A stretch of DNA of 64,000 nt from a phage: the sequence record PZ171033.1. The stretch is one strand, 5' to 3'. Positions within the stretch are counted from its first letter, which is position 1. Each line of letters begins with the position of its first letter. This document shows, piece by piece, positions 21,881-61,996 of this stretch. The position numbers were made by a program, and so were the translations under genes. The notes below the pieces were generated by a model, which had not been told where the DNA came from, made no database searches, and worked only from the letters and a program-made list of their open reading frames with translations.

Positions 21881-22372
21881 ATGTCAGAAGAAATTAAAGT
21901 CCATTTCACCAACTACATTGGAACCAAGTGTGTAAATGGATTCCGGATGAACAAGGAAACATATTGCAAACTCCGTGGCTGGGATGTGCCTGCTAATGAA
22001 GACCCATTAGAAGTAGGTTACTTAGTAGAATACCCAGATTCTAAACCTAACCATGAACAATTCCGTGGTTATATTAGCTGGTCACCAAGGGCTGCATTTG
22101 AAGCTGCATATTGTGATGTAGATAAGGGTTGTACTTTTGGTCACGCAGTAGAACTTATAAAACTGGGTCACAGACTGACCCGTAAAGGCTGGAACGGTAA
22201 GGGAATGTATATTACCCTAGTATCTGGTGAAAATTGGGCTATGGATAAACATGAGAATACCGTATGTGAGAAACGGGATTGGTTGGGCATCAAAACTGTT
22301 GATGACCAGTTTATGCCTTGGGTTCCTTCCCAATCGGATGTATTAGCTGAAGATTGGGTATTAGCTCAGTAA
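21881..22372 (+). CDS. DUF2829-domain protein (Tad2-like candidate)
   Basis: C-terminal FGHAVELIKLGHRLTRKGWNGKGMYITL ... SDVLAEDWVL matches DUF2829 signature from memory; RBS GAGGTAG. Confidence 0.5.
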   Translation: MSEEIKVHFTNYIGTKCVNGFRMNKETYCKLRGWDVPANEDPLEVGYLVEYPDSKPNHEQFRGYISWSPRAAFEAAYCDVDKGCTFGHAVELIKLGHRLTRKGWNGKGMYITLVSGENWAMDKHENTVCEKRDWLGIKTVDDQFMPWVPSQSDVLAEDWVLAQ

Positions 22373-22377: not shown

Positions 22378-22406
22378 AAAGCCCCTCATTTGAGGGGCTT
22401 TTTTAT
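22378..22406. terminator. bidirectional intrinsic terminator
   Basis: GCCCCTC-ATTT-GAGGGGC flanked by A and T tracts; lies between convergent genes. Confidence 0.65.
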
Positions 22407-22407
22407 T

Positions 22408-25400
22408 TTAGTTTATCAGGTTCATCCAAGGGTTCAGGTTGTGAGCACGTAAGCCTTGACCGAAACCGAAGGAGTAACCAAGATTGCCCTGTGCAGCAAT
22501 ACTAAAGATGTTGTCCTGAATAGGCAGGCCAACGTTACCAAACATGGTAGGGGTTGGGGCCAACATAGCCATAGCAGCATGAACTGGGTTATTACGAATC
22601 ATGGACACTGCAACTTTTGCAGAACGAATCTTAAAGTTGTAGAACCACATCAGACCAACACTTTCCATATACCCACGGAAACGACCTGGCAGACGATCAT
22701 AGTTAATAAACTCTTCCGTTACACGTCCTAGTGCTTCTTCGCGAGTCTTACCTTTACGCTGAGTTAATTCATCATAGATGATTGCTTTAGCAATAAAGTC
22801 AGAGTACTCAACCGTCTTCTGGATACCCTGGAACAAAGCAGTATCCTTAGTGATAAGTGCATAACGACCAGCATTACGTACAGACTTAGGCAGCTTATCA
22901 GCCAACTTATCCATGTACTCGTGAAGTTTACCTTCAGTAATCAGGATGTCGTCACGACCAATACCAGCGTCTGCAATTGAAGAGAACTCACCTGCTTCTA
23001 ACAGGGGCCAGATACTCAAACGCTTATGACTATCAGAGATGGACTGAATCTCAGCCTTAAGTTTACGAATCTGGTTCGGGTTAGTAGCTGCACGTAATTC
23101 TGCTTCTGCATCTACCTGACGCAGACGAGATTTCAGATACTGGTTAATCTCAGCAGTTTTCTGTGGAATGCTCTTAGCAATGTTCTTAACAGGTACACCA
23201 CGAGCAACCATCTGGTAAAGGTTAGCCAGGAAGTTAACAGCAGGTACGACTACTGACTTAACTACAATCAGGGTCTTAGCTTCTTTAACTAAATTCTGAA
23301 CCAGGTTCTCACCACCCATTACGTATTTATAGGCACGGTTACCGAAGACACCCAACATAGCTTTCTTGAAGGTATCCAGTGTTTCTTGGGACCAACGAGA
23401 GTTACCAGACCAGGCATCACCAACAGAAGCTGCACGATAGCCGAGAGCATCATTGAGCATGTCACGACGTACCCACAGCTCACCAGGACCAAACAGACTT
23501 TCTGCTTTCTGACGTGTTTCACTATTCATCAGCTTAAGTGCATCGGCAGTTACTGGGTCCAGTTTAGAACCAAGAAGGTTAACGTACTGGGACTTATTAG
23601 AAGCAGACATCTTAATGTCGTTCTCATACATGCTATGCAGGTTCTCAATTAGCATATCGTTGAAACGCTGAGCCTTAGCCTCTTCTACCTGACGACCACG
23701 CCATACACCGATTGCACGAGCAAGATGGTTCTCACCCTCAATGTGCTTCAGCATGTTAGGGTCAATGGATTGCTCATAAGCAACCACATTACCATTGGCA
23801 TCATATACAGGCAGAAGTGGTTCATTACCACGTTCACCACGAGCCAGTGCTTTAGTGATACGATCTACAGAAGGCTTGTCAGTAATACGACCAGCTACCA
23901 TGGTTCCCATAGTAAAGCCTGTACCAAGGTCCACACCACCAGCAGTATTGCGAACGTTCTGTAAGATACCCTGTGAGAATGGGGCCTGTGCCTGTACTGG
24001 TGCGAAGTAGTAGCTACGAGCAGGACCACGATTAGCAGAGCTACCCTGATATGTACCCAGTCGTACATAGGATTTCTCAATCAAATCAGCAAACTGACTA
24101 TCTTCAGCAACAATCAGATTAACACCCTGTTTAGTCTCACTAGGGATATGCCCTTTGTACTGGTTCAGGGTTGCACGCATATCAGATTTGGCTTTAGCCA
24201 TTTCATCTTTACGCTGACCAACCAGGTAAGAGGTGGCAAAGTCCATCCCATCAACTTCTGTCTGAGCCAGTGAAGATAACATCTCACGGTCGGACTTGTT
24301 CATTGCTTCCAGTGCATACAGGGTAATCAGTTTATCCAGTTGAGCTACATCTACAGTAGAGCGTGCAGCCTGACGTTCACCCAGCATACGGGAGATTGCA
24401 GTAGCATTACGCAGCAGGTTTTTACCGACAGTACCATTAATCATGTACTGAGCCAGTTGCTTAGATTTACGGTTAATCAGAGGCCAGTTACGACCAGCTT
24501 GTTTCTGCAAATCTGCTTCCAGCTTATTCACTTCACGGTCAACAATCTTCTGGTCAGTCAGTAAGTCACGGATTTCAGCCAGTGACATAGTGTCACGCAG
24601 GACAGCTAAATCTGTTTTACCCATACCAGTATGCATTACTTTCCACTCATCATTAGTCAGCTTACGGCTGAACTTAGATGCGATAGTAGTAGGCAGATGT
24701 TCACGGAACTGCTGACGGTCTGCCTGCACCTGTGCACGTACTGCTTTAATCAAATCGTATACAGAAGCATTGCTCTTAGTACGACCGGTTAAGTCATTAA
24801 CCAGGTCATGGAAAGGTTGCCATACCTTACCCTGGTTCATTGCAGCCATAACACCTTCAGCTACGATTGCACCATTCTTCTCTGTAGCAATAGCAGCTAC
24901 CAGTTGTGCAGCATGAGCAGCACCTTTAACCAATGGATTATTGGTATTGGCTGCAACTTCACGAGCACCTTCCAAAGCACGGGTAGATAGTACATCAATA
25001 GAATCCACCAGATACTGGTTAGCACGGTCAATAGCATTACCAGTAGGAGTAGCAACGGAATCATAGAAGGATTCTGCATTAAGACTGGTCTGCATAATCG
25101 TCTGAGCCAGTGCATCCATACCTTCCTGTACGTTAGTAGCTTTAGTATCACCTGCTACACGAGCATTCAGACTAGCCATTGCAGCAGTACCAATGTTAGT
25201 CAGCATTGCATCAACGGTATTACCTGATTTCTTATCTGCTTTCATGACAGGAATGTCAGCCAGTACTTTACGTACTTCTTCACTTACCATTGCCAGACCA
25301 ACAAAGGTAGGCAGTAAAGAAGATCGACCTTGTGCATCAAACTCAATGTTGTTAGCACCCATGATGGTATCGAACTTCTGCTGTGCATAATAACGATCAG

Positions 25401-28400
25401 CAGGGTTAGTACTATCTGGGTCAGCCATAAATGCTTCGACGGTCAGATTCTTAGTAACATGCGTGTAGTATTCCTGTGCACGAGCCATAGCAGCAGGGTT
25501 AACAGCAGCCTCGGTAGCCAGTGCAGCAACAATATTGGTAAAGAGACGCTGTTCCTGCATATTCATGGTGAAGCCATGAGCCTGAACATCACGAGTTACT
25601 TTAGTTGCATTTACTACTGCATCAGAGAACTTACCTTTGCGAATTACTTGCTGTACTGGTTCTGAACCAATGTAGTTAGTAATTAGCTTATCAAAGGTTT
25701 TCCCTAGCTCTTCCAGACGAGTATTTTCACCATACGCTTTGTTATGGAACAGAGTAGTATCTTTGGCTACAGCAGCAGTAGGAGCTTGCCCACGCATTAC
25801 TACAGCAGAGTTAAACAGTAAGCCAGAGAACATATCTTCTGCATTAGCAGGAGCTTTCTTACGTCCAAATACCAGACGTTTGATTGCTTCATATACAGCC
25901 TGAACCATAGTTTTAAGTGCAGTGGTTTTCTTCTGCTTACTAATCAGTTCTCGGTTGGTTAAACCCCAAGCCATGTACTCGTTCAGTGCAGCAGCTTTAG
26001 CCATTGCTGGTTCAATAAAGCCATTGGATAGGTGACCATTAATGGTATTCAGTGCATCAGCATATGCTTCTCGTACTGCCGGAGATTCATCCCTAACATC
26101 CAGAGCACGGAACTGATTCATCAGGTCTTCGATGTTCTGGACTGCTTCATTAGGAGTGCCTTCATAGTGAGCCAGTACAGATTCAAAAGTAGAAGCATGT
26201 ACCAATTCATGAACCAGAGTCTCTAAGGAAGGGGTAACTAAGTAGATGGTTTTATCTTCAAAGTTAGTCCAGCCGTATGCATTACCAGCTTCAGCAGCTT
26301 CAATATCTTCCGGTGCTGGGCGAGTAATGTTCTTCTCAATAGCATAGGCATCCAATTGAGCAGGTGTACCGTAAACAACTTTATAGTCTTTAGCAGCAAG
26401 GGATTTCTGTATTTCTTTCAATACTTCTTGCTGTTCAGGAGACATCTCTTTAGCCAGTTTAGTAATGGCAGTGTTAGACAGCAGACGTACACCAGACTTC
26501 AGTACACGACCAACCTGTTCCATCGCCGGTACTTCTTCCACTGGTTCTGCTTTAGTAGCACGTACTGCTTCACGACGCTTATTTAATTCAGCATCAAACA
26601 GTTCGTTCAGCTTAGCTACTTGCTGGTCTACAGTAAGACCTTCCAGAGAGATTTTACCGTTGTTCACATAAGGAGCACCTACGGCAGCCATCTGGTCAAC
26701 AGTGACTTGTACCTGGTCCATTACCTTGTGACGAATATCTACACCCAGAGCAATGTTACGCAGGTTACGTTCAATCTGCTCAGCACCGACACGTAACAGG
26801 TCATCAGTAGCACCCTCACGTTGGTCATACTCCAGAGCAGACTTAGCGATAGCCTGTTTGGTTTCATCAGACAGTTTACTGAAGTCTACGTTCTTCATGA
26901 ACTTAGCGTAGGAGTCATAAACATTCTTGATAGGGTTACCCTGCCAGGAAGTATATACAGCCTCATTAGCTTTGCGACTTGCATCAGTGATGTCATTGAT
27001 ACCAATGTTCATACCATCAAAGATTTTCAGGGTATTCTTCGGAGCACCTTTCATAGTAGAAAGTGTCTGCATCATCATGCCATCACCAGTACCGATGGTC
27101 ATAAATGGAATACCTGCAACACCTGCCTGTGAAGGAGCATAAATGCTCATTGGCACACGCATACGGTCATCTAAGTTAGTAGCCAGTACTTGGTTAGCAA
27201 CATCAGTATTCTCACTACCAGCAATGTAGAAAGTCTGTGAACCAGTCTCAATCATTGGAGCCAGTGAAGATAATGATTCCTGGATTTCATTCAGTTCTTT
27301 CTGCGTTAAGAAATCACCTTTCTTCCAGGTTGGGTCTTTTTCTTTTTCTGCCAGCTTAGCCTGTACTGCTTGCTGGAACATATCCTGCAATACCAGAGAT
27401 TGAATCTGGGTAGCCTTCTGCAAGTTCTCGGTAGAGTGCATCAGACCTTCACCAACAGTATTACGGATACCAGTACGCATTGGTTCAACGAACAGGTGGA
27501 GCATGTTCTCTTGTAAGTTCTTCAGGGCATTACCGGATACGGTAAATTTCTGGGGGTCTAACTTACCAGTCAGAGCACCATCTACTTGCTGAATAGACAA
27601 CTCACCTTTACGCATAACTGGAACATTACCAGTCAGTGCTTCCATAGAAGTAAGGAAAGTATCCAACATAGCCTGAGCATCAGCTTCAGACGCAGCCTCC
27701 TTACCAAACATTGCCATAGCTGGGGAAATGCTAGGGTCAGCAGCTCGTGCTTGCAGAACGTCACTGAAGCGTTCGTAGATGGTATCAGTAATTGCACTGA
27801 CCATCTTGCCAGCAATACCACGAGCACCAGAACCATAGATGGTAATGGTCAGTGGGTTTTTAGCAATACCACGTTTCAGGTCCAGAGTACCGTCTTCATT
27901 CAGGTTAAAGTCTTTAATGAACAAGTCCATTAACTTCTGGAGATGATTCATCTGGCTCATAACTGGAACGTTGTTACGGTAAGTAGTACGTAACTCATTC
28001 AGTGCTTGTTGAAGACCATTGGTAGATGCTTCATACAAGTCAACATTATCGTCGATAGAACAATGTTCGTTCATCGTTTTACCAGCACGACCAAAGAACA
28101 AACCACCTTTGGCAGTGTTCTTAATCCAGTCTGGAGTGAACTTACCACCAGTCATTAATACCATTGCGTTGATTGGGCCGTTGGTTACACCATCAGCTTC
28201 AACGTACAGTGGAGTAGTAAAATTAGCACGGTCATCACTGTTCAGGTAACGGGCATATTCCATCAGAGCCATGAGAGCTACGAAGGATTTATCACTACCC
28301 AGAGAGGTCTTCAGGATGTCTACTGCATCTGTCGGTAAGTGACCAGACTTATCAAACTCAACCATCATATCAACAGCAGGTTTCAGTTTACCTTCCAGAG

Positions 28401-31400
28401 CTTTAGTTAACTCTTCAGACATAACTTCACGGGACATTTTATGTACCTTGATGCCTAATGCCTGAGCCAGACCTAACTGGAAGTCAGAGAACGCTTGGCT
28501 GTTTTCATTACTCAAGTCGATAGTAGAGAAGGTTGGTAGGATTGCTTCACGAACCAGCTTACTGGATTGTGGGTTGTTCTTACCAAGCATCTGCATACGA
28601 CCTACACGGGTCATGTTATAACCGTAGTGGATAGGTGTATCCAGACCATTCTCTTGTTCTCGTATCTGATTAATTACACCGAACAGAGAATCATATGCCA
28701 TAGACACGGACAGGTTTTTACCTTCCAAAGATTTAGCAGTGTTCGCGTTCAGTAATTCTGGATTAAGAGTACCAGCACCCATCAGTTCCAGAATGTTGTC
28801 ACGCCCCAATGCTTCATAGAAGTTAACCATTGGCATATGTACACGGAACTCGGTAGCCTGTTCAGCTTTCAGTGCAGCCTTCTGTTCAGGGGTATTCTTA
28901 ACAGCAGGGTTACGCAACTGAGTCTGAGCCACAGAAGGAATGTCATCACCAAAGTACATTTTCTCTTCTGGTTCTAAGAGGACAGCTTCCTCAATAGCAG
29001 TAGGGAATTTATTAATGGCATCATTGTCATCCAACTTCTCAATGGTATACAGACCAACAGTCTTATTGGAGTCTGGGTCAATCTCAGACACATCCAACAT
29101 AGACTCTTTAACTTCACCCATCTCAATGAGAGAAGACAGAATCTCTGTAGCCATTGCCATTGGGATACCTTTGGTATAACCCAGCGGTGCATTAGGATTA
29201 CGATTCAAACCCCAGTAGGATTCAATCTTCTGAGCCAGTGAGTTAGTAGCTTCAACCAGGGTCTGGGCATTCTCGAACTCAGCCAGAATACCTTCTGGTA
29301 ACAGAGATGCTTCTACGCCTGTAATAGCAGCTACGTCTTTCATATCTTTAATGGCAGCATTCTGTGTAGTAGTCAGTCGCCATTGCAAACCAGCAAGCAC
29401 AGCAGTCTCTAACAACTGGTCGTTGAACTTAAAGGTATCCCCATCTTGTTCAACTATATTCAGCAGTTTGCCACCTACCCAACGGTTAGCTTCAGTACCT
29501 TCTGCAAAACGTTTACCAACGTTCTTATTAGCAAGGAACTTAGCCAGACGTTCAGACAAAGTAGTCTTCAGAGTTTCACCAAAGTCCATTAAGTCCTGAT
29601 AACGCTTAATCACATCACTAGTGAGAGCGTTATTTTCTTTTTGAGTGAATGCCTCAAAGCGAGCAGCAGAAGACAGTGCTTGCTTAATATCAGTCAAAGG
29701 AGATTCTGAACCAATGGTACGGGACTTAGGTTCTTCCGGTAAGGTAAATGCTTTCAGGAACTGGTTCGGTGTCTTTTCATTGTTATAGACAGGGAACACT
29801 GTTTCCATTTCTGTTTTGGTTTCAGCTACTTCCTGGATGGTATCCTCATTCTTGAGAATAGCATCTACTGTTTCAGGCTTAGTAGTAGAGACTTCTTCTG
29901 TTTTTGGACTAGTCTCCTTAGTAGGAGCAGTCTTATTTTCTACCACAGGTTTAGCTTTAGGCTGTACAGTAGTAGTGTCCTCTTGCACTGGTGCAGGAGA
30001 TTCATCAACCTGATTCACTGGTTCATTAGTCTGTTGAGACTGAGTGGCATCAAGACCACCTTGACGGAACTCTTTAACTACCTGGGCAGCAGGCTTGTTC
30101 AGACGTGAATCCAACGAGGTAACTTTCACATGAGAAACATTAAGCTCCGGGTAAGCCGTAGCAAGTGCATTAGCAATATCAGCTACGGTTTTGGCTTCCA
30201 GTCCTACTTGCTGGGCAAACTTAACAGACTTGGTATCGTAAGGATTGACACCGAGGCCAGTACGACTACGTACCCATTCACGGGAAGGCGAGAGAGCCTG
30301 ATAATGAACAGACTTATTCTTATCCGCATTCCCCGAAATCAGATGCTCATTCAACGCTCCGACCTTATTCTGCATGTGCTGGGCGAACTTCATAAAGTCG
30401 CTCAGATAAGCGGAGGCCAAATCGAAGTTACCAGAGTTATACGCAGAACGAATGCGTTTCGCATGTTGCAACGCAGAGTACTGTCCTTCATTAGAACGAG
30501 ACTCGTCGGTTTTAATCTGTTTACTAACAATGTCTTGAGGACGTAAGCCTAGTTCTTCTGCTTTAGCGTCGAACTCACGTGCACCCTGTAACAAGGCAGC
30601 AGCAGATTGCAGGGCAGCACGTTGACGATTCCCCAGTGTAATCTTACCTTCACTTGCGTGCTTCAGAACCATGTTCACTGAATCTGCATCCAGTACTTCT
30701 GGAGACACATCAGCAGCCATAGCAATGTTGTTTGCTTGGGCTTGATTAGCTTCTTCAGTAGCTTTCAGCTTACCTGCTTCAGCCTGTTCCTGAATCATGG
30801 AATGGATGGCACGGAATGCACGGAGTACTTTAGGGGTATTCTGTACGTTAGCCATCAAGCCAGAGAACTGGTCTACGATTGTAGCAGCAGGAGAACCTTG
30901 TTCCAGATTAGCCAGAGCACCTGGGTCACGGTTAATGAAGCTATCCATAGACATGATGTTGTCATACATCTGGATTGCAGCTTCCATTTGAACGTTAGGG
31001 TCTTCAGCAGTATTAACCAGGTCAGCCATCTTCTGAATAGCTTCAACACGGTTAGTGGAACCAGAAACAGCTTCACGGATTGCCGGGTTAGCTTGTTCCA
31101 ATTCTACCGGGTCAAACTTCATTGCCTGAGTTAAGTCAGCAGCATACTGGGTAGCAGCAGCTTTCTCTTCTGGAGTGATGTCCATTGCATCCACTGCTTC
31201 TTGTACAGTTGCCTGTGCTTGTTCTGCCTGAGCAGCAGCTTCCTGTGCAGCAGCATTAACCGTAGCATCAGCTACAGGGGATGCTTGTTCATTACGCTTA
31301 GCAACTTCTTCACCACGTTGAATCAGGATGTTAGTAAGAGGGGATGCAGCTTTTGCTAATGTTTTGCCAACCAGAGAAGCACCAGCCAGGGTAGTACGAA

Positions 31401-32760
31401 GAGCAGGGCCAGCAGAAGCACCAACTGCTTTAACAGTTGTACCAGGAGCTTGAGCAACCCCAGCACTACCGAATCCATAAAGTGCACCCAGACCTGCTTG
31501 CTCACCAACCCCTTTGAGGGTGTCACGGGATGCATCAACGTTTTCTTTGATTGCAGTATTCTGTGCGAACTGACCAAAGCCGGATTGAATACCTTCTTCG
31601 ACTGTTTCACGTAGCATATTAGAACCAGCACCTGCCAGTGAACCTACCTTAAGTGGGTTAAGTTCAAAGCGAGATACCAGTGGACCGGTAGCAGCAGCAA
31701 CTGGAGCAGTTAAGCCAGCAGCAATGATACCTGTTTCAGATGCAGTCTGACGTCGTGCTTCATCAGGAGATAAACCATCAGCAATATGTTGCTGGTAAAC
31801 AGGAGACTTACTTGCCAGTTCTTGGTGGGACATCTTCATGATTTCAGAAGCAGTCTGTTGGTATGCACCACCAGCTTCCATACCACCAATTGCAATAGCA
31901 GGTGCAGCAACACGACCAGCAGACAGTGCAACCTGTGCAGGACGTGAACCTAACCCAGCAGCTAAGGTAATACCTTTAACAGCTTTATCACCTCCTACCA
32001 TTACTTTACCTAATGCAGATACACCACGGATAAGTGGACCACCAGTAAAGAGGGAACCAACACCTTCACTCAGTCCGTCGGAAGCAGCCATACCATTATC
32101 AAGTGTATTAGCAACAGAATCAAAAGCGTCACGACCAATACGAGACAGGGAGGCAACCAAATCGCTCTCTCCGTTTTTTATATCTTGTTCATAGAGTTTC
32201 TGGTTCTTTTGGGCAGAAATCTGGTTCTGATTCTGAACAACTTTACGGGTAGCATTCAGTGCATCAGACTGTAGATTGTGTACACCTTCATTCAACCAAT
32301 CCATCCCGGAAGCAATGGATGCCCCGGCATTATCATTGACCAGACCTGTGCCAAGAGCAGCAATGCCCCCAAGGGTATTAGCAACACCAAGACCAACACC
32401 AGAAAGAGTATCGCCAAATGCTTCTGCGTTAGTACGTTGTTTAGATAAGCCCTGACGTACAACATCAGTAGCATTAGCTCGGCTATTAAGAATCTGTAAA
32501 CCTTGCTCATTACCATACTTATTAATGATTTCTAAGGGAGAGGCTTGAGTGAAATCTGCCTGAAGTGAACCGGGTTCGAATGCACCGATTCCAAGATTAC
32601 CTACTCGTCCAGTCTGGAGATTGTAAGCGTTCTCTGGGGTTAATTGGAAAGGGCTTTGCCCTTGTGCAGCTTGCTTCTGAGAGGTTGCAGTAGAGACATC
32701 GACTTGCTTAGCATTAGTGATGCTGTCTGCGAAACCTGCCAGACGGTCAAATGTTGACAT
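22408..32760 (-). CDS. giant virion-encapsidated RNA polymerase (N4 vRNAP-like)
   Basis: About 3450 aa; T7-like motif B KRGIAKNPLTITIYGSGARG; start set to ATG 32760 with AGGAAAC RBS (ORF track 32778 is TTG). Confidence 0.85.
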   Translation of the reverse strand: MSTFDRLAGFADSITNAKQVDVSTATSQKQAAQGQSPFQLTPENAYNLQTGRVGNLGIGAFEPGSLQADFTQASPLEIINKYGNEQGLQILNSRANATDVVRQGLSKQRTNAEAFGDTLSGVGLGVANTLGGIAALGTGLVNDNAGASIASGMDWLNEGVHNLQSDALNATRKVVQNQNQISAQKNQKLYEQDIKNGESDLVASLSRIGRDAFDSVANTLDNGMAASDGLSEGVGSLFTGGPLIRGVSALGKVMVGGDKAVKGITLAAGLGSRPAQVALSAGRVAAPAIAIGGMEAGGAYQQTASEIMKMSHQELASKSPVYQQHIADGLSPDEARRQTASETGIIAAGLTAPVAAATGPLVSRFELNPLKVGSLAGAGSNMLRETVEEGIQSGFGQFAQNTAIKENVDASRDTLKGVGEQAGLGALYGFGSAGVAQAPGTTVKAVGASAGPALRTTLAGASLVGKTLAKAASPLTNILIQRGEEVAKRNEQASPVADATVNAAAQEAAAQAEQAQATVQEAVDAMDITPEEKAAATQYAADLTQAMKFDPVELEQANPAIREAVSGSTNRVEAIQKMADLVNTAEDPNVQMEAAIQMYDNIMSMDSFINRDPGALANLEQGSPAATIVDQFSGLMANVQNTPKVLRAFRAIHSMIQEQAEAGKLKATEEANQAQANNIAMAADVSPEVLDADSVNMVLKHASEGKITLGNRQRAALQSAAALLQGAREFDAKAEELGLRPQDIVSKQIKTDESRSNEGQYSALQHAKRIRSAYNSGNFDLASAYLSDFMKFAQHMQNKVGALNEHLISGNADKNKSVHYQALSPSREWVRSRTGLGVNPYDTKSVKFAQQVGLEAKTVADIANALATAYPELNVSHVKVTSLDSRLNKPAAQVVKEFRQGGLDATQSQQTNEPVNQVDESPAPVQEDTTTVQPKAKPVVENKTAPTKETSPKTEEVSTTKPETVDAILKNEDTIQEVAETKTEMETVFPVYNNEKTPNQFLKAFTLPEEPKSRTIGSESPLTDIKQALSSAARFEAFTQKENNALTSDVIKRYQDLMDFGETLKTTLSERLAKFLANKNVGKRFAEGTEANRWVGGKLLNIVEQDGDTFKFNDQLLETAVLAGLQWRLTTTQNAAIKDMKDVAAITGVEASLLPEGILAEFENAQTLVEATNSLAQKIESYWGLNRNPNAPLGYTKGIPMAMATEILSSLIEMGEVKESMLDVSEIDPDSNKTVGLYTIEKLDDNDAINKFPTAIEEAVLLEPEEKMYFGDDIPSVAQTQLRNPAVKNTPEQKAALKAEQATEFRVHMPMVNFYEALGRDNILELMGAGTLNPELLNANTAKSLEGKNLSVSMAYDSLFGVINQIREQENGLDTPIHYGYNMTRVGRMQMLGKNNPQSSKLVREAILPTFSTIDLSNENSQAFSDFQLGLAQALGIKVHKMSREVMSEELTKALEGKLKPAVDMMVEFDKSGHLPTDAVDILKTSLGSDKSFVALMALMEYARYLNSDDRANFTTPLYVEADGVTNGPINAMVLMTGGKFTPDWIKNTAKGGLFFGRAGKTMNEHCSIDDNVDLYEASTNGLQQALNELRTTYRNNVPVMSQMNHLQKLMDLFIKDFNLNEDGTLDLKRGIAKNPLTITIYGSGARGIAGKMVSAITDTIYERFSDVLQARAADPSISPAMAMFGKEAASEADAQAMLDTFLTSMEALTGNVPVMRKGELSIQQVDGALTGKLDPQKFTVSGNALKNLQENMLHLFVEPMRTGIRNTVGEGLMHSTENLQKATQIQSLVLQDMFQQAVQAKLAEKEKDPTWKKGDFLTQKELNEIQESLSSLAPMIETGSQTFYIAGSENTDVANQVLATNLDDRMRVPMSIYAPSQAGVAGIPFMTIGTGDGMMMQTLSTMKGAPKNTLKIFDGMNIGINDITDASRKANEAVYTSWQGNPIKNVYDSYAKFMKNVDFSKLSDETKQAIAKSALEYDQREGATDDLLRVGAEQIERNLRNIALGVDIRHKVMDQVQVTVDQMAAVGAPYVNNGKISLEGLTVDQQVAKLNELFDAELNKRREAVRATKAEPVEEVPAMEQVGRVLKSGVRLLSNTAITKLAKEMSPEQQEVLKEIQKSLAAKDYKVVYGTPAQLDAYAIEKNITRPAPEDIEAAEAGNAYGWTNFEDKTIYLVTPSLETLVHELVHASTFESVLAHYEGTPNEAVQNIEDLMNQFRALDVRDESPAVREAYADALNTINGHLSNGFIEPAMAKAAALNEYMAWGLTNRELISKQKKTTALKTMVQAVYEAIKRLVFGRKKAPANAEDMFSGLLFNSAVVMRGQAPTAAVAKDTTLFHNKAYGENTRLEELGKTFDKLITNYIGSEPVQQVIRKGKFSDAVVNATKVTRDVQAHGFTMNMQEQRLFTNIVAALATEAAVNPAAMARAQEYYTHVTKNLTVEAFMADPDSTNPADRYYAQQKFDTIMGANNIEFDAQGRSSLLPTFVGLAMVSEEVRKVLADIPVMKADKKSGNTVDAMLTNIGTAAMASLNARVAGDTKATNVQEGMDALAQTIMQTSLNAESFYDSVATPTGNAIDRANQYLVDSIDVLSTRALEGAREVAANTNNPLVKGAAHAAQLVAAIATEKNGAIVAEGVMAAMNQGKVWQPFHDLVNDLTGRTKSNASVYDLIKAVRAQVQADRQQFREHLPTTIASKFSRKLTNDEWKVMHTGMGKTDLAVLRDTMSLAEIRDLLTDQKIVDREVNKLEADLQKQAGRNWPLINRKSKQLAQYMINGTVGKNLLRNATAISRMLGERQAARSTVDVAQLDKLITLYALEAMNKSDREMLSSLAQTEVDGMDFATSYLVGQRKDEMAKAKSDMRATLNQYKGHIPSETKQGVNLIVAEDSQFADLIEKSYVRLGTYQGSSANRGPARSYYFAPVQAQAPFSQGILQNVRNTAGGVDLGTGFTMGTMVAGRITDKPSVDRITKALARGERGNEPLLPVYDANGNVVAYEQSIDPNMLKHIEGENHLARAIGVWRGRQVEEAKAQRFNDMLIENLHSMYENDIKMSASNKSQYVNLLGSKLDPVTADALKLMNSETRQKAESLFGPGELWVRRDMLNDALGYRAASVGDAWSGNSRWSQETLDTFKKAMLGVFGNRAYKYVMGGENLVQNLVKEAKTLIVVKSVVVPAVNFLANLYQMVARGVPVKNIAKSIPQKTAEINQYLKSRLRQVDAEAELRAATNPNQIRKLKAEIQSISDSHKRLSIWPLLEAGEFSSIADAGIGRDDILITEGKLHEYMDKLADKLPKSVRNAGRYALITKDTALFQGIQKTVEYSDFIAKAIIYDELTQRKGKTREEALGRVTEEFINYDRLPGRFRGYMESVGLMWFYNFKIRSAKVAVSMIRNNPVHAAMAMLAPTPTMFGNVGLPIQDNIFSIAAQGNLGYSFGFGQGLRAHNLNPWMNLIN

Positions 32761-32823
32761 AGCATGTTTCCTGTTCAAACTTATATCGTATATAGGTAAC
32801 TTACTCTACAGTAAGCCAGTTAA

Positions 32824-32851
32824 AGAAAAAAGCCCCGTAGGGCTTTTATTA
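32824..32851 (-). terminator. intrinsic terminator upstream of vRNAP
   Basis: AGCCC-CGTA-GGGCT with T-rich flanks on both strands. Confidence 0.5.
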
Positions 32852-32854
32852 GTA

Positions 32855-34819
32855 TTACCGATTTTGTCTTGGTTGCATATACTCAGGCAGTCCTTGTGCC
32901 TGACGTAAGTACCGTGCAGCACGTTCTTCATCTTCCTTGGCTCGTGCCCTGTCCACACTAGCCTGTGACTGAAAACCTCTTGGAGCCAGGTTAGCTGGGT
33001 CAGCTTGTACTTGTGCCTGTGCAGCTTGGAGCATTGCAGCAGCTTTAGTAACAGCCTCCTGTCGTGCAGGTAACAGTGCAGTAAGACCACTTTGTCCGGT
33101 GTTAATCTTATTCTGGGTATTTGCCAGTGCAGCTACAGCAGCATCATATGCAGTCTGTGCTGCCTGAATGTTCTGCATAGCCTGAGCACGACCTAGGTTA
33201 CGAACACTACCTTCTAATGGTTCACCTCGTTTTACACCCTCAATTAACTGTTCTACCTGACGGTCATTAAGACGCATACCATTACCGGCTTCATTGGTAA
33301 TGAATGGGTTAACTGCATCAATAGCACGACTAATATAACCTTCCGGTACACCAGTCTGTGCACGTTGCATAACAGCAGCAGCCATAGCTGGTGACATATT
33401 CCCACGTTGGGAAATATCATTCAGTCGGTTCAGTACCCAGTTACGGTCAGCACCTTTAAAGTCACCCTCCAACAGACGGTTAGCAATCTCACCTACTGGG
33501 GTATTATCGGTGACAGTACCAAGGAAGTCAGTGTTAAGACTACCGGTGTTATCCTGCATAGAACGAGTACCAATCATACCAGTAGCCAGAGTAGATACTG
33601 CCTGATTACCTTGGTTATTCTGAACCATAGCTAGTGGGTCAGCCCCCACTTCTGCTTGAGCAATAACAGGTTTAATCTGTTCCCAAGTCATATCCTTATA
33701 AGCACCTGGAGCAGAGTTAGGGAGTGCAGCCCAAGTATCTTTAAGGTTACCGTTCTTACGGGCCTCGAAGATAGCCTTACCAATCTTATCCTGGTTCTCA
33801 GGAGAAAGAGGCTGGCTTTGCCAATCTGAACCAAGAACTTTAGGAGCGAAGTCTTTCAGAGTAGCTTGGTTAATCTGGAATGCACCAACAGGTGAAGCAC
33901 CTTGGTTCTTCTTCATACCATCCTGGTGTTTAATTACATCACCAATACTCATTTGAGTAATAGGAGTAGATGTACTGGCAAACTGGTAAGTAACATCATA
34001 AGGAGAACCCTGACGAGTACCAGCAGTACCTGGAGCAGATGTAGCACCAACATTATTACCGTAAACACCCGGGTATGCTCGTGCAAGCATTTCCTGCAAA
34101 CGTGCCTGTGCAACCGGGGACAGGTTCTTACTATATGCTTCTGCCAACAGACGGGCATCATTAGGGTTCTCAGCACCACGAGTAATCTGTGACATTACAC
34201 CCATAGCTGCCTGACTATCAGCATCATTACGTTGGGCAACACCTAAATCAAAACGGTTCTGTGCCTGATTAATAGCCTGACCACCCTGACCTTGAAGACG
34301 ACCCAACATGTCCAATTGTTGGTCAGCAGGGAGTGCAGACAGTGCATCACGGGTCTGACTTAATGCAGCATTAATACGGTTCTGGTCGCCGGACTGATAA
34401 GCCTCAGACAGCAAACGAATAGCTGGGGAAGCATTATCTAATGCAGTGTTAGTATCCTGTAAACGACCAAAGCGATATGCATTGTAGTCATTGGTTCCCT
34501 GCTGACCTTGTTGGGTCAGTAATGTACCTGCTCGCTCATCCAGATTCTGGAGAGTACGTTGGTTTACCAATGAGGGGTCAACCCCCTGAAACAGTGCACC
34601 GGATGCTAAAGCATTACGGTACTCATTCGGGTCTTGATACTGCATAGCATTCATCATGACGGCATTGCCAGCCTCCTGCTTGGCAGCGTTCTGGAAATTA
34701 CCCAGTGCATCACTTAAGCCGGAGGTGGCGTTACCAATCATGCTGCCAAATGTGCGAATGCTGTCACCAACTCCAGAGAAGTTAGGTGCATCAACATTTC
34801 TCCACGTTATCTGAGCCAT
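32855..34819 (-). CDS. virion protein, likely co-injected with vRNAP
   Basis: 654 aa, Q/A-rich; first gene upstream of vRNAP in late operon. Confidence 0.55.
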   Translation of the reverse strand: MAQITWRNVDAPNFSGVGDSIRTFGSMIGNATSGLSDALGNFQNAAKQEAGNAVMMNAMQYQDPNEYRNALASGALFQGVDPSLVNQRTLQNLDERAGTLLTQQGQQGTNDYNAYRFGRLQDTNTALDNASPAIRLLSEAYQSGDQNRINAALSQTRDALSALPADQQLDMLGRLQGQGGQAINQAQNRFDLGVAQRNDADSQAAMGVMSQITRGAENPNDARLLAEAYSKNLSPVAQARLQEMLARAYPGVYGNNVGATSAPGTAGTRQGSPYDVTYQFASTSTPITQMSIGDVIKHQDGMKKNQGASPVGAFQINQATLKDFAPKVLGSDWQSQPLSPENQDKIGKAIFEARKNGNLKDTWAALPNSAPGAYKDMTWEQIKPVIAQAEVGADPLAMVQNNQGNQAVSTLATGMIGTRSMQDNTGSLNTDFLGTVTDNTPVGEIANRLLEGDFKGADRNWVLNRLNDISQRGNMSPAMAAAVMQRAQTGVPEGYISRAIDAVNPFITNEAGNGMRLNDRQVEQLIEGVKRGEPLEGSVRNLGRAQAMQNIQAAQTAYDAAVAALANTQNKINTGQSGLTALLPARQEAVTKAAAMLQAAQAQVQADPANLAPRGFQSQASVDRARAKEDEERAARYLRQAQGLPEYMQPRQNR

Positions 34820-34831: not shown

Positions 34832-35275
34832 TTAACGAGTTAGTTTATTAGCAGCAATGTAAGCATCAGCCGAAGACTGGTCACGGTTCTCTGCTGTAGC
34901 ACGGCTACGAGCACGGTCTTCCAGTGCAGTGTTATAAGACTTAATCTGGTTATTCAGGTTAGTGTTAGTAACACTCTTAGTAAAGTTCAACTGGTCTTTG
35001 GCTAACTTGTTAGCCTGGAAACCACTATAGATACCAGCTAAGGAACCAAGTGCACCAAGTCCTAGTTGAAAGGTGGGTACGTTCATACCCAACTGATTAG
35101 CTGAACCAGATAAGAAGGAAGTTGGGGAAGCCACTCCTGTACCTGCATTCATACCAATAGCTGCACCAGGGGTATAGTTCATAGCTGGGGTATTAAAGTT
35201 CTGATTGTTATTAGACATCCAAGACATAGCAGCTGGCTGTGGGGTTTGGTTGCCTGTTAAGAATGACAAATCCAT
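34832..35275 (-). CDS. virion protein
   Basis: ATG 35275 with AGGAGA RBS. Confidence 0.5.
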   Translation of the reverse strand: MDLSFLTGNQTPQPAAMSWMSNNNQNFNTPAMNYTPGAAIGMNAGTGVASPTSFLSGSANQLGMNVPTFQLGLGALGSLAGIYSGFQANKLAKDQLNFTKSVTNTNLNNQIKSYNTALEDRARSRATAENRDQSSADAYIAANKLTR

Positions 35276-35288
35276 GAGGATTCTCCTG

Positions 35289-37943
35289 TTAAACAAGGTC
35301 TGTATTAAGAGTCATATCAGAGTAGCTTCCAATCATGTTTAAAGACATGTCAGCTATATCTGAACCAGTCATGAGAGTACGTGAGAGGAAAGAATCCATC
35401 GACTCCATTGACACAAATTGCATAGGGTCAATTACACCCTGCCCAGCAGTACCAAACATTTCTTCATACTGCTTATTGATTGCCATCATATCAGTATTGT
35501 ACTGCTGCATTACATTCTCTGCTTTCTGAATAGTAGCAGCCGTAGATGCATTAATATACTGACTAATACCATTACCCACTGAACTGGTAAGTTGCATTAT
35601 GTTCTGAGCATTCATCATTTCACTGGCTAAGGTAGATAAAGATGTACCAGTAGATAAAGCAGTACCAACATTCATAGCTACCATTGAAGCAACAGCAGCA
35701 ATGATAAAACCTAGCTTATCACCAAACAGTGAAGTAGATACTTTAGTGACAATAGATATCATAATCATTGCAGCAATGGCGTTTGCTACAGCACCCACTA
35801 TTACAGCAGCTAATCCAACAAAACCAAGTGATGCGCCAACTGCACTGTAAGCCCCAAGAATACCTGCACCACCAGCACCCATAGTGAATACAGATACAAC
35901 GACAGCAACTACAACGACCACTATCTTAAAGACAGAAGTTTGATACCACTTCTTCTTAACCTTCTTATACGAGTTCATTACTAAGTAGGAACAGGCAGTA
36001 GACAGTTGAGTACTACGAGTCAGTGACATTGAACGGTAGATGTTAGTGTGTAGTGGAATAATGAATCCACTCTCTTCTGCATCACCCATTGCTTCAGCAA
36101 CATCAATGTTCACTGATTTATTTTTATATACTCTATTGTTGTGGTTTAGGCCCAATACCCTAAGTTTACGATAAGTGTTATTACCATCCTGCCAAAGCAA
36201 CTCATACTCCTGCATGGAATAAAACGTAGTGGTAACTTCCAGTTTCTTAGTAGAACCAGAGTTACTGGCAGTACGTATGTTCTTACGGGTAAGAGTTATA
36301 TCCCCTGCATATCTGGCTCGAAGTTGTCCTTGTTTAGCACCAGTCCATGCTTCACCTGAATGGGTAGTTTCAGACACATAGTTCCAACCAATAGTCATGT
36401 CATACTTATATTGCTTATTACTATGTACCCTAAACTCTCGCTTAGGTATGACAGGGTATTCTGGCAAGGGTGGAGGTGTTCCAACAGTTTGTCCTTCATA
36501 CCTGTTCCACCATTCCACATATGCATCAACTGCATCATTTGCTGCCTGATAACCTGCAATCACTGCTTCCAGTGTAGGGTAGGTTGGATCAGGTGGGAAT
36601 GCTTCAGTAGCCATCTGAAAGAAACGGTAGATGTATTCCTTAGCAGTATCTTCTGGAGTATTAAGAGATACACCGAATGTGCCATAGATGTATTGAATAT
36701 CACCTATGTCGTCATTCTTCTTAAGCTCAGTCACTACTTTATCAAGCTTACCACCAGTAGCTTTATAGAGTGCCTTCTTACAGTGAGGGTAGATTGGGTC
36801 ATTCTCTACCCATTGTTTATCATTCCTGATTGGAATGAATGGATAGAATCGGTTATCGGTAGCTTCAGTCTCAAACAGTGAATCAAGTACAACGTTACCT
36901 GAGTTATGCTTATAGATAAGCATCTTAGGTGTACCAACAGCAGTCATCTCAGTATCAGTGCGAGTAGTCTGGGATGAGTACTTACGAACCAGTGTCTCTG
37001 TAGTTGTAGTGATTGTATCTGTGCGAGTAACACCACCACCTAAATCAACAACATTGGTAGTTACAGTAGTACTGGATTGAACTTCACCAAACTTTGTATG
37101 AGTCATTACCCTATCAGATACAACCACAGTTACATCATCAGGTTTCTCAGTAAATCCTCTACGGTAAACCTTAACGTAAGAGTTCCAGTTATCCACACTT
37201 GGTTCAGTAACAGTACTGTCTTCATCCGGCCTACCATCAGAGTAAACAGAATGAGTCTGTATAGTCTTAGTAAGATTGGTTGTATTAGCTGTCGTATCAC
37301 TTGAGATGGTAGTCCATAGCAGGGTAGATGGTAAGTCATCCTCGTCATCGTAGACAGTAGTCGGTCCTACTACCGGTGGATTGGTAGTAGGGGACTTATA
37401 GAATGAGTAATCAGCATAGAGATACAAAGCACCTGGTTCAAAGTTAGTAGGTGTGAATGTAATAGTGGAACCTCCATCCAGAGAGGTCATAGTAATTTCA
37501 TTGGTATCTTCATCAATGTCTACGTCGAATCGTTCCATGATTCGACTTGGGGCATTATCATAAAGATATTGATCACACCATTGCTCAAAATCAGCAAAGC
37601 CAATCTCTGCTGCCTGAACATAGACAGATTCTCCAGCAGGTGGAGTAATTTGACCCTCTATAACAGTAGGGTCAATCTTAGCCAGTACGCCTAATGAAGA
37701 ACCTGCCATGCCAACTTCTGAATCATAGTGGTTCTTGCTCCAGCTGGAGAACAGTCGCATACGAATACCGGGTCCATTCAGATAACTATCGGAGATAGTG
37801 TCTGCCATAGTGAATCCTGTATTGGAAACAATGTTACCAATGACTACAGTCTTCATATAGTTTGGGCGTTTATGGATATCCCCTGCCATGTTATAGACAG
37901 AGGATGCTACGTATACTTTGGTCTTCCCACTGAATAAGCCCAT
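35289..37943 (-). CDS. large virion protein with hydrophobic transmembrane-like segments
   Basis: 884 aa; long hydrophobic stretch VVVVVAVVVSVFTMGAGG... Confidence 0.6.
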   Translation of the reverse strand: MGLFSGKTKVYVASSVYNMAGDIHKRPNYMKTVVIGNIVSNTGFTMADTISDSYLNGPGIRMRLFSSWSKNHYDSEVGMAGSSLGVLAKIDPTVIEGQITPPAGESVYVQAAEIGFADFEQWCDQYLYDNAPSRIMERFDVDIDEDTNEITMTSLDGGSTITFTPTNFEPGALYLYADYSFYKSPTTNPPVVGPTTVYDDEDDLPSTLLWTTISSDTTANTTNLTKTIQTHSVYSDGRPDEDSTVTEPSVDNWNSYVKVYRRGFTEKPDDVTVVVSDRVMTHTKFGEVQSSTTVTTNVVDLGGGVTRTDTITTTTETLVRKYSSQTTRTDTEMTAVGTPKMLIYKHNSGNVVLDSLFETEATDNRFYPFIPIRNDKQWVENDPIYPHCKKALYKATGGKLDKVVTELKKNDDIGDIQYIYGTFGVSLNTPEDTAKEYIYRFFQMATEAFPPDPTYPTLEAVIAGYQAANDAVDAYVEWWNRYEGQTVGTPPPLPEYPVIPKREFRVHSNKQYKYDMTIGWNYVSETTHSGEAWTGAKQGQLRARYAGDITLTRKNIRTASNSGSTKKLEVTTTFYSMQEYELLWQDGNNTYRKLRVLGLNHNNRVYKNKSVNIDVAEAMGDAEESGFIIPLHTNIYRSMSLTRSTQLSTACSYLVMNSYKKVKKKWYQTSVFKIVVVVVAVVVSVFTMGAGGAGILGAYSAVGASLGFVGLAAVIVGAVANAIAAMIMISIVTKVSTSLFGDKLGFIIAAVASMVAMNVGTALSTGTSLSTLASEMMNAQNIMQLTSSVGNGISQYINASTAATIQKAENVMQQYNTDMMAINKQYEEMFGTAGQGVIDPMQFVSMESMDSFLSRTLMTGSDIADMSLNMIGSYSDMTLNTDLV

Positions 37944-57108: not shown

Positions 57109-57123
57109 ACATGCTCCGCATGT
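57109..57123 (+). promoter_or_regulatory. 3-nt-loop hairpin, candidate vRNAP early promoter
   Basis: ACATGC-TCC-GCATGT, then NNNGG; intergenic upstream of gene at 57166. Confidence 0.35.
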
Positions 57124-57165
57124 TATGGACATGTCGTCCTATCATCAACTATTGGAGCTATCATC

Positions 57166-57489
57166 ATGACCACTACCGCTACTGTACGTATGACTGCAGG
57201 AACTTTACTTGGTACTGTTAACTCAGCTGCTACTACTGTTGCAGATACATTTGGTACAGCAACTAAAGCAGTAGGTATGCTTAATTCATATGTAAGTACT
57301 ATGGCAGAGAAACAAGCCATCCGTACTAAATTAGAAATGCATACCTTTGTTAATAAACTGGCAGAGGAAACAGCTATGACTGAGACTCTGCGTAAGAAAA
57401 GTATCGAGGAATTCTGCAAGGATTCAGAGAACGCTCGTATCTATAACGCAGAATATTCCAAAGTAATTGACATCCTGACTAAAGACTAA
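57166..57489 (+). CDS. early protein
   Basis: 107 aa. Confidence 0.5.
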   Translation: MTTTATVRMTAGTLLGTVNSAATTVADTFGTATKAVGMLNSYVSTMAEKQAIRTKLEMHTFVNKLAEETAMTETLRKKSIEEFCKDSENARIYNAEYSKVIDILTKD

Positions 57490-61963: not shown

Positions 61964-61996
61964 TTTGGTTATTAATAACATTTAGGAGAATATGCG

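Follow-up and report, generated by a model that had tools for sequence, protein, structure and literature searches.

N4-like phages pack a giant RNA polymerase in their particles and inject it into E. coli. This virion RNA polymerase (vRNAP) is a hallmark gene of the Schitoviridae, and for phage N4 both its structure and its mode of action are established, with full-length cryo-EM structures published in 2026. The N4 vRNAP, gp50, is known to be virion packaged and ejected into the host (PMC13434306, PMC4496689), and its right-hand fold is known from published structures (PMC4496689). Work on N4 links the N-terminal domain (NTD) to membrane association and to the early phase of genome injection, and shows that the alpha-helical C-terminal domain (CTD) holds the polymerase in an autoinhibited state and is required for encapsidation (PMC13434306; PMC13492108).

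The window analyzed here, a 64,000-nt stretch of phage DNA (sequence record PZ171033.1), contains an uninterrupted open reading frame (ORF) that the ORF list places at 22408..32778 on the minus strand, with 3456 codons counted from TTG 32778. As judged from sequence, it is almost certainly the vRNAP gene (the N4 gp50 ortholog) of a Gamaleyavirus (a G7C-like, N4-like coliphage), translated from ATG 32760 as 3450 aa.

22408..32760, minus strand: predicted vRNAP coding sequence, N4 gp50 ortholog, from ATG 32760, 3450 aa plus stop

The frame of ∼10.35 to 10.4 kb is unbroken, and in phmmer searches of PDB chains residues 1-3449 align with residues 1-3499 of the full-length N4 gp50 structures (5029 bits), with 1708 bits against the mini-vRNAP crystal chains; a 10.4-kb ORF in full-length alignment with a solved 3500-aa protein is far beyond chance. 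PHROG 2206 (“virion RNA polymerase”) matches with 4134 bits and covers residues 25-3449, and all four vRNAP-specific Pfam domains are matched above their cut-offs (PF21894, 7e-101; PF21867, 2.7e-58; PF21769, 3.3e-56; PF21624, the plug, 1e-25). The 3450-aa product, with its full-length gp50 alignment, also falls within the family size of ∼3400 to 3750 aa in a single polypeptide. The earlier note had read this ORF as an N4-type vRNAP, and the gp50 alignment, the Pfam and PHROG matches, and the retention of every catalytic residue (see below) bear this out; the check that it had proposed, alignment to the N4 gp50 central domain, decisively finds similarity there, with 72% identity over the N4 mini-vRNAP domain.

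The gene is ordinary and intact, of a kind already known, and there is nothing new about the gene itself. Its closest described counterparts, also of 3450 aa, are the proteins of PhAPEC7 (YP_009056186; 97.0% protein identity) and KKP 3715 (WLW40941; 97.2%), and together with the 3443-aa vRNAP of Mimir124 these show 96.6 to 97.2% protein identity and 93 to 94% DNA identity, or ∼100 amino acid substitutions. Gp50 of the genus type phage G7C (YP_004782180) is 92.4% identical across all domains. The 3450-aa and 3456-aa versions are both absent from a collection of 15 billion proteins, and the exact sequence is also missing from the phage collection.

The protein is organized by sequence as an NTD, a low-complexity linker, a central T7-like polymerase, and a CTD, with conserved plug and specificity-loop regions, and thus shares with N4 gp50 (YP_950528; PDB 2PO4, 3C2P, 9PNQ/9PNR, and 11GP) the same three-domain architecture, catalytic motifs, and plug and specificity-loop regions. 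All of the following assignments are by alignment to N4 unless other sources are given; motif B was also located by its peptide.

30058..32760, minus strand: N-terminal domain, residues 1-901 (N4 1-906)
29809..30057, minus strand: P/T/E/K-rich low-complexity linker, residues 902-984 (N4 907-1006), by alignment and PMC13434306
26557..29811, minus strand: central T7-like single-subunit RNA polymerase domain, residues 984-2068 (N4 1007-2101), by Pfam and alignment
28597..28611, minus strand: TxxGR motif TRVGR, with R1388 (N4 mini-vRNAP R424)
28192..28194, minus strand: motif A catalytic aspartate D1523 (N4 mini-vRNAP D559)
27817..27876, minus strand: motif B KRGIAKNPLTITIYGSGARG, residues 1629-1648, with R1630, K1634, and Y1642 (N4 R666, K670, and Y678)
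27016..27018, minus strand: motif C catalytic aspartate D1915 (N4 D951)
22411..26514, minus strand: C-terminal domain, residues 2083-3450 (N4 2124-3500)

Identity to N4 gp50 is 67.2% overall, with 59% over the NTD and linker (N4 1-997), 71.9% over N4 998-2103, and 69.3% over N4 2104-3500. The protein is 50 residues shorter than N4 gp50, with most of the difference falling in the linker and at the junction between the polymerase and the CTD. Linker length also differs within the genus, as the 3748-aa G7C gp50 has two insertions of ∼140 aa each between NTD and polymerase that are missing here, making it ∼282 residues longer in this region.

The central domain holds the Pfam vRNAP_dom_2, plug, helical, and vRNAP_dom domains, and the catalytic set is complete, with R1388, D1523, R1630, K1634, Y1642, and D1915 all kept in the alignment to N4; the residue numbering was confirmed by a gapless match to chain 2PO4. 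The T7-like motifs (defined as T/DxxGR, A, B, and C from established knowledge of T7 RNA polymerase and PMC4496689) are present as TRVGR, YVEADG (A), KRGIAKNPLTITIYGS (B), and KIFDGMN (C), and are shared with T7 and mitochondrial single-subunit RNA polymerases. The motif B peptide that the earlier note had quoted is found as given, with the spacing RxxxKxxxxxxxYG of T7-like RNA polymerases. A phmmer search with the palm and fingers region matched only N4 chains, with no T7 or mitochondrial RNA polymerase chain at an E value of ≤10, and the tie of this domain to T7 RNA polymerase is through the motifs and the published N4 structures, sequence search alone giving no link. By analogy with N4, the enzyme would differ from T7 RNA polymerase in recognizing a single-stranded DNA hairpin, not a duplex promoter, and in lying within a virion-packaged protein ∼4 times larger.

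The gene sits in a late leftward ejection-protein operon with the same order as in N4, G7C, and PhAPEC7, and N4 has the same neighborhood of gp49, gp50, gp51, and gp52. Two further homologs of N4 proteins lie elsewhere in the window.

21881..22372: gp49-like gene, convergent with the vRNAP gene
32855..34819, minus strand: gp51-like ejection/virion protein gene, upstream partner of the vRNAP gene (PHROG 6126, the gp51 family; PMC13434306)
34832..35296, minus strand: gp52-like gene, by its ejection-operon position (match to PHROG 2646, a family of unknown function; PMC13434306)
16711..17514: single-strand DNA-binding protein homolog (PHROG 743), taken as the N4SSB counterpart
61997..62815: RNAPII small-subunit homolog, downstream of the P3-equivalent promoter

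In position and function the product is analogous to T7 gp16, the third and largest ejection protein after the outer membrane pore and periplasmic tunnel proteins (PMC13434306). There is no sequence relationship, and gp16 recruits host RNA polymerase, whereas vRNAP is itself a polymerase.

Cognate promoters were sought near the early genome end as hairpins with a 5- to 7-bp stem and a 3-nt loop and with a template-strand purine at −11, G at −10, G at −8, and C at +1. The same scan of the first 10 kb of N4 gives exactly three sites, before gp1, gp2, and gp15, and the three sites in the window correspond one to one in position with N4 P1, P2, and P3.

57109..57127, plus strand: P1-equivalent early hairpin promoter ACATGC-TCC-GCATGT, loop 57115-57117, predicted +1 G at 57127, before the gp1-position ORF 57166..57489
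57598..57616, plus strand: P2-equivalent early hairpin promoter AGACGC-TCC-GCGTCT, loop 57604-57606, predicted +1 G at 57616, before the gp2-position ORF 57624..58103
61949..61967, plus strand: P3-equivalent early hairpin promoter AGCTGC-TCC-GCAGCT, loop 61955-61957, predicted +1 G at 61967, before the RNAPII small-subunit homolog 61997..62815

Each has a GCTCCGC core and a G 11 nt past the loop center, and the template-strand recognition bases at all three are −12A, −11G, −10G, −9C, −8G, and +1C. The stems are all 6 bp, whereas those of N4 are 5, 7, and 7 bp, and the P1 loop is TCC (template GGA) where N4 P1 has TTC. In N4, K267 contributes to melting at the base of the hairpin stem; it is replaced by N here, a change shared by the four further Gamaleyavirus sequences in the comparison (G7C, PhAPEC7, KKP 3715, and Mimir124). 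The other eight of the nine promoter-contact residues, with roles taken from N4 work (PMC4496689), are identical to N4 (K114, R119, W129, K268, K849, K850, D901, and R904).

These data also bear on whether the gene could be a decaying or inactive copy, such as a polymerase-dead ejection protein kept for a structural role. Two-thirds of the protein is not polymerase, and in principle it could plausibly serve in ejection without catalysis (PMC13434306), but the 10.35-kb frame is unbroken, no catalytic residue is lost, only one of the nine promoter contacts differs, the cognate promoters are intact and lack none of the recognition bases, and the polymerase domain is the part best conserved with N4 (71.9%), such that loss of activity is exceedingly improbable. 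For an active vRNAP, the 72% identity to the N4 mini-vRNAP leads us to expect rifampicin-resistant transcription on single-stranded hairpin templates. By analogy with N4 (PMC4496689, PMC13434306, PMC13492108), the gene would be expressed late, with few copies of the product entering the capsid via the CTD, and at infection these would follow the gp51/gp52 channel proteins out through the tail, their domains probably only loosely connected during ejection. The NTD would associate with the membrane, gyrase-driven supercoiling would then extrude the promoter hairpins for vRNAP to bind, and transcription of the early genes, including those for the RNAPII subunits, would also help to pull the genome into the cell.

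The start region reads GATATAAGTTTGAACAGGAAACATGCTATGTCAACA, with TTG at 32778-32776, AGGA at 32772-32769, and an in-frame ATG at 32760.

32769..32772, minus strand: Shine-Dalgarno core AGGA, 8 nt upstream of ATG 32760
32776..32778, minus strand: TTG, the ORF-list start, rejected here as initiation codon and part of an invariant, apparently noncoding box

ATG 32760 aligns with Met1 of N4 gp50, the two N termini being the same (MSTFDRLAGFADS against MSVFDRLAGFADS), and the homologous ATG is the annotated start in 13 relatives. Its anti-Shine-Dalgarno duplex energy of −4.3 kcal/mol is below the median (−5.3) yet within the range of 21 likely gene starts in the window, and 17% of random 20-mers attain it. 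The “good AGGAAAC RBS” of the earlier note is thus present as a ribosome binding site, but only with the 4-nt AGGA core, and “moderate” describes it better. Translation from TTG 32778, as in the ORF list, would yield a 3456-aa protein with an MNRKHA extension. The TTG shares the frame of the ATG, no stop codon intervenes, and the triplet is kept in frame in 13/13 Enquatrovirinae leaders examined, and the public record of Klebsiella phage BaqKoxi annotates a start at a still longer upstream TTG. However, the TTG has no upstream Shine-Dalgarno sequence, and its energy of −1.0 kcal/mol is weaker than that of all 21 window gene starts; AGGA lies between TTG and ATG at a distance that suits the latter. 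The six upstream codons vary nonsynonymously among relatives (NRKHA, NRKQA, NRNHA, NRKPT, and YRKPT), whereas the adjacent coding sequence is conserved and AGGA is invariant in the same 13/13 leaders. N4 gp50, which has been sequenced and solved, begins at the homologous Met, and two distant relatives with a similar (MST/MSS) N terminus, Achromobacter phage Axy11 and Alcaligenes phage QDWS595, have no in-frame ATG, GTG, or TTG upstream of the start, so that a TTG extension cannot exist there. The TTG is also part of a 12-nt block whose DNA sequence does not vary, for which a regulatory site is a better fit than codons. A start at TTG 32778 is accordingly very unlikely, and ATG 32760 is favored, as the earlier note had suggested in judging the ORF-track start miscalled. 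The six extra codons appear to be a product of longest-ORF calling; the miscall lies with that mechanical list, and no curated annotation is involved.

Four elements in the leader and at the gene end flank the coding sequence.

32776..32787, minus strand: invariant box GATATAAGTTTG in the leader, containing the TTG, from leader comparison
32797..32818, minus strand: conserved leader hairpin TGGCTTACT-GTAG-AGTAAGTTA, from compensatory changes among relatives
32828..32847, minus strand: intrinsic terminator that follows the gp51-like gene and directly adjoins the vRNAP leader on its upstream side
22378..22401, both strands: bidirectional intrinsic terminator, 6 nt past the vRNAP stop and common to the convergent gp49-like gene

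From terminator to ATG the leader is identical in PhAPEC7, KKP 3715, and Mimir124, and it is also identical in G7C. Compensatory changes uphold the hairpin across N4, the Klebsiella KP8-like phages, and Gamaleyavirus, and it is followed by the box, which is possibly a −10-like element of a late promoter; by this comparison TTG 32778 reads as a noncoding triplet within a conserved regulatory box. Were the transcript to begin at or after the box, this would give a mechanistic reason for ruling out the TTG as a start codon. A more speculative and rather unlikely idea is that the leader may hold an undescribed regulatory module, either a structure-dependent late promoter or a processing/attenuation element setting a low vRNAP dosage. 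A comparable terminator, hairpin, and GATATA-type box are seen ahead of two more late units that run leftward in the window, at 54679-54687 and around 46480-46530.

The value of these observations is mostly in correct annotation, the allele being 97% identical to already annotated proteins of the same genus. The coding sequence should be annotated from ATG 32760 (3450 aa) and is best named vRNAP; in several public relatives this gene goes by “DNA polymerase,” “translation initiation factor 2,” or “hypothetical protein.” For the three early promoters, which occupy the same gp1, gp2, and gp15 positions as the three hairpin promoters of N4, and for the ejection operon, annotation can be carried over directly from N4.

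The gene is a single ORF on the minus strand, 22408..32778, which in the ORF list begins with a TTG codon and codes for 3456 aa; initiation at an in-frame ATG (32760) would give 3450 aa instead. The start region on that strand reads 5'-...AAAAGCCCTACGGGGCTTTTTTCTTTAACTGGCTTACTGTAGAGTAAGTTACCTATATACGATATAAGTTTGAACAGGAAACATGCTATGTCAACATTTGAC-3', with the TTG at 32778, an AGGA at 32772-32769, and the ATG at 32760, and the peptide KRGIAKNPLTITIYGSGARG is found at residues 1629-1648; all features described in the earlier note are found, at the coordinates that it gives. That note proposed an N4-type virion RNA polymerase (vRNAP), to be checked against the central domain of N4 gp50, and the assignment is upheld by full-length alignment with N4 gp50, Pfam, PHROG 2206, and the catalytic residues. 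In a search of all PDB chains, residues 1-3449 align with residues 1-3499 of full-length N4 vRNAP (11GP, 9PNQ, and 9PNR; 5029 bits), and the central third of the protein has matches of about 1708 bits to crystal structures of mini-vRNAP (2PO4, 3C2P, and 3Q0A). The match to PHROG 2206 ("virion RNA polymerase") scores 4134 bits and spans residues 25-3449, and the four vRNAP-specific Pfam families are present.

vRNAP-specific Pfam families in the protein (residues, family, E value)
1292-1407, PF21867, 2.7e-58
1424-1505, PF21624 (plug), 1e-25
1583-1799, PF21894, 7e-101
1881-2025, PF21769, 3.3e-56

In a six-sequence alignment with blocks defined in N4 residue numbers, the whole protein is 67.2% identical to N4 gp50, with 59% identity over residues 1-997 (NTD plus linker), 71.9% over the central domain (998-2103, mini-vRNAP), and 69.3% over the CTD (2104-3500). 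Identities to G7C gp50, PhAPEC7, and KKP 3715 in the same alignment are 92.4%, 97.0%, and 97.2%, respectively, and with 97% identity to annotated orthologs the gene is, judged by its sequence, a textbook case of a hallmark of its phage family. The linker between NTD and RNAP (residues 902-984; 29809-30057, minus strand) differs greatly in length among members of the genus: two linker insertions of about 140 aa each, missing here, are present in G7C gp50 (3748 aa), and Mimir124 vRNAP lacks 7 aa in the linker region. Neither the gene nor its linker has tandem repeats.

A nucleotide comparison of the gene with its flanks gave matches to 86 phage records, the best, with 100% of the query covered, being the Gamaleyavirus phages KKP 3715 (94.1%) and PhAPEC7 (94.0%). 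The rest of the window shows 92-95% identity to a range of Gamaleyavirus genomes, over 81-93% of the length of each third, and the window is thus most of a G7C-like, N4-like coliphage genome. The best partner changes by region, with KKP 3715 and PhAPEC7 closest for vRNAP and SP5M and PE007 elsewhere, which suggests a mosaic Gamaleyavirus; the genome is possibly below the 95% species threshold, and it is itself absent from the phage collection. Gene order around vRNAP is the same as in N4, where gp51 and gp52 provide an outer-membrane pore and a periplasmic tunnel for gp50 ejection (PMC13434306).

Genes and sites around vRNAP and elsewhere in the window
16711..17514, single-strand DNA-binding protein homolog (PHROG 743), taken as the putative N4SSB counterpart
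21881..22372, plus strand, gp49-like gene, convergent with the vRNAP gene
22378-22401, bidirectional terminator between the gp49-like and vRNAP genes
32855..34819, minus strand, gp51-like gene (PHROG 6126), upstream of vRNAP
34832..35296, minus strand, gp52-like gene (PHROG 2646, a family of no known function), assigned by position
61997..62815, RNAPII small-subunit homolog

Several other features of the window are of note. Two nucleotides past the RNAPII small-subunit homolog begins a 193-aa ORF (62817-63398, plus strand) with PHROG matches to endonuclease VII and HNH-like proteins (7e-29). In N4 the RNAPII large subunit directly follows gp15, whereas here this endonuclease-like ORF comes next, apparently a homing endonuclease gene inserted between those for the two RNAPII subunits. 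ARAGORN predicts two genes on the plus strand (19243-19314 and 20694-20769), a tRNA-Ala(cgc) and a tRNA-like gene whose anticodon call is an anomalous 2 nt; relatives have tRNA-Ile or "Xle" annotated in this region. No Rfam family reaches threshold between 21800 and 33200 (E<=0.1); the sole match, to the STnc100 sRNA at 22330-22410 on the plus strand, reaches 27.9 bits, below the gathering score of 47, and overlaps the bidirectional terminator, whose stem most likely produced it by chance. The five longest antisense ORFs within the gene (111-138 aa, plus strand) have no PHROG match and are regarded as chance ORFs.

The catalytic residues are identical to those of N4 by alignment: R1388 (in TRVGR), D1523, R1630, K1634, Y1642, and D1915 correspond to R424, D559, R666, K670, Y678, and D951 of N4 mini-vRNAP. 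The numbering was checked against chain 2PO4, in which a match of 443 residues without gaps has D, K, Y, and D at positions 559, 670, 678, and 951, and KRGIAKNPLTITIYGSGARG is therefore motif B. Its RxxxKxxxxxxxYG spacing is that of T7 RNAP motif B, and with its residues mapping to N4 R666, K670, and Y678, the T7-like character claimed for this peptide is borne out. A phmmer search of all PDB chains with the palm and fingers region returned N4 chains plus noise only, with no T7 or mitochondrial RNAP chain at E<=10, and the relationship to T7 thus rests on motifs and published structures. This agrees with the view of mini-vRNAP as a highly diverged member, recognizable only through motifs and fold (PMC4496689).

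Five lines of sequence evidence support ATG 32760 as the translation start. First, alignment with N4 gp50 pairs residue 1 of each protein (MSTFDRLAGFADS versus MSVFDRLAGFADS). Second, the homologous ATG is the annotated start in 13 relatives (PhAPEC7, KKP 3715, Mimir124, G7C, N4, KP8, St11Ph5, ECBP1, Moo19, PW8, IME11, Axy11, and QDWS595); the one exception seen, Klebsiella phage BaqKoxi, starts at a TTG 51 nt upstream under the label "DNA polymerase," which looks like automatic over-extension. Third, Achromobacter phage Axy11 (N terminus MSTFDRLAGYANS) and Alcaligenes phage QDWS595 (MSSFNDL), both of other Schitoviridae lineages, lack any ATG, GTG, or TTG in frame from the upstream stop to the homologous Met. 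Fourth, in 13 Enquatrovirinae leaders the "codons" from TTG to ATG would read NRKHA, NRKQA, NRNHA, NRKPT, or YRKPT, and changes in these six are mostly nonsynonymous with the AGGA invariant among them, while changes in the first codons past the ATG are mainly synonymous. Fifth, the anti-SD duplex energy in the 20 nt before the start is -4.3 kcal/mol for the ATG versus -1.0 kcal/mol for the TTG.

The ATG proposed in the earlier note thus stands, although its ribosome binding site, described there as good, is real but moderate, as -4.3 falls within the range for 21 likely gene starts in the window (-9.4 to -2.5) and compares with a median of -5.3. Each virion needs about four copies of the protein (PMC13434306), which a moderate site would suit. 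Neither the exact 3450-aa nor the exact 3456-aa product is present in a collection of 15 billion proteins, so this allele has no public annotation that could be wrong in its start, and "mis-called" applies to an ORF list taking the first start after a stop. Orthologs in several GenBank relatives are labeled "DNA polymerase," "translation initiation factor 2," "gram positive anchor domain protein," or "hypothetical protein," and the K60PH164C1 record has unrelated pseudo-features across the vRNAP locus.

N4 vRNAP promoters are hairpins extruded from supercoiled DNA, with a GC-rich heptamer centered at -11 and inverted repeats on either side; the enzyme makes specific contacts with the template strand (-11 purine, -10G, -8G, and +1C) and initiates eight nucleotides past -8 (PMC4496689). 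The window has three copies of the heptamer GCTCCGC, all on the plus strand in intergenic parts of the early region, and each copy centers a 6-bp stem with a 3-nt loop.

Predicted early promoters (plus strand)
57109-57123, ACATGC-TCC-GCATGT, predicted +1 G at 57127, ahead of the gp1-position ORF 57166..57489
57598-57612, AGACGC-TCC-GCGTCT, predicted +1 G at 57616, ahead of the gp2-position ORF 57624..58103
61949-61963, AGCTGC-TCC-GCAGCT, predicted +1 G at 61967, ahead of the RNAPII small-subunit homolog

Stem positions vary among the three hairpins with pairing retained, and a G lies exactly 11 nt past every loop center. The same scan of the first 10 kb of N4, a positive control, returns exactly three hairpins (at 95, 564, and 4553), with flanks homologous to those of the window sites (e.g., cgttac...tatggacatg at P1). 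This heptamer and stem-loop scan superseded a first pattern, presumably the N4 P2 sequence (GAAGCGGAGCTTC), which with up to 2 mismatches gave 2 matches versus 0.86 expected, alone not significant. Eight of nine promoter-contact residues are identical to N4 (K114, R119, W129, K268, K849, K850, D901, and R904), so the window carries both the enzyme and promoters that fit it. The ninth, the stem-melting lysine K267 of N4 mini-vRNAP, is aligned with N1232 (29065-29067, minus strand), and is also N in all four other Gamaleyavirus phages compared (G7C, PhAPEC7, KKP 3715, and Mimir124). The stems are 6 bp at all three window promoters versus 7 bp in N4 P2 and P3, and a tie between K267N and the stem length is speculation. 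The first early-promoter hairpin of N4 (taken as P1) is 95 nt from the left end, and by analogy the physical end of this genome is to be expected near 57000; the window would then be a rotated or circularly joined form. ORFs at 55328-56950 (plus strand) sit upstream of the first early promoter.

The domain architecture, intact active site, plug and specificity-loop regions, and cognate promoters are all recognizable at the sequence level. By analogy with N4, the vRNAP gene would be expressed late by host RNA polymerase, and its product encapsidated through the CTD and ejected, once gp51 and gp52 have left the virion, as a chain of beads on a string, with the NTD associating with the membrane; the polymerase would be autoinhibited by the CTD, plug, and motif B loop, activated by gyrase-extruded hairpins, and would transcribe the early genes, also aiding genome entry (PMC4496689, PMC13434306, PMC13492108).

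The leader between the gp51 terminator and ATG 32760 contains a conserved hairpin and a short box.

Leader elements (minus strand)
32847-32828, gp51 terminator, just upstream of the leader
32818-32797, conserved hairpin, TGGCTTACT-GTAG-AGTAAGTTA
32787-32776, 12-nt box, GATATAAGTTTG, containing the TTG

The box does not vary among N4, KP8-like, and G7C-like phages, and the hairpin is predicted in 13 of 13 Enquatrovirinae leaders, with z-scores versus shuffles of -2.7 to -4.1 in each and five stem versions related by compensatory changes (CTTACT/AGTAAG, CTCACT/AGTGAG, TTCACT/AGTGAA, CACACT/AGTGTG, and TTACACTA/TAGTGTGA). Outer-stem G-T pairs are tolerated on the sense strand only, which hints weakly at a role in single-stranded form (RNA or DNA). 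The box core ATAASTTTG has only two copies in the window (32784-32776 and 54687-54679, both minus strand), each 14-15 nt ahead of the ATG of a leftward gene; two copies versus 1.84 expected is no excess over chance, and it is their positions, not their count, that are suggestive. A similar terminator, hairpin, and GATATA-type box precede two other leftward late units (54679-54687 and about 46480-46530, minus strand); the latter falls in a third late intergenic region (46340-46582), which has a terminator, a 10-bp hairpin, and GATATATTAAAC.

N4 late promoters reportedly have only a weak resemblance to sigma-70 promoters and depend on N4SSB (PMC4496689, PMC9163698). The box could be a -10-like element of a late promoter, in which case transcription would begin at or after the TTG. 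A sigma-70 scan of 21800-33400 found no site near the vRNAP start but is uninformative (3 sites versus 18.6 expected in shuffles), and in a manual search candidate -35 elements 16-18 nt from TATAAG matched at no more than 3-4 of 6 positions, in registers that differ among phages, so a late-promoter role of the box is a hypothesis. Hairpin and box together may form a late-promoter or attenuation module, and they are the sole item here that might repay more work.
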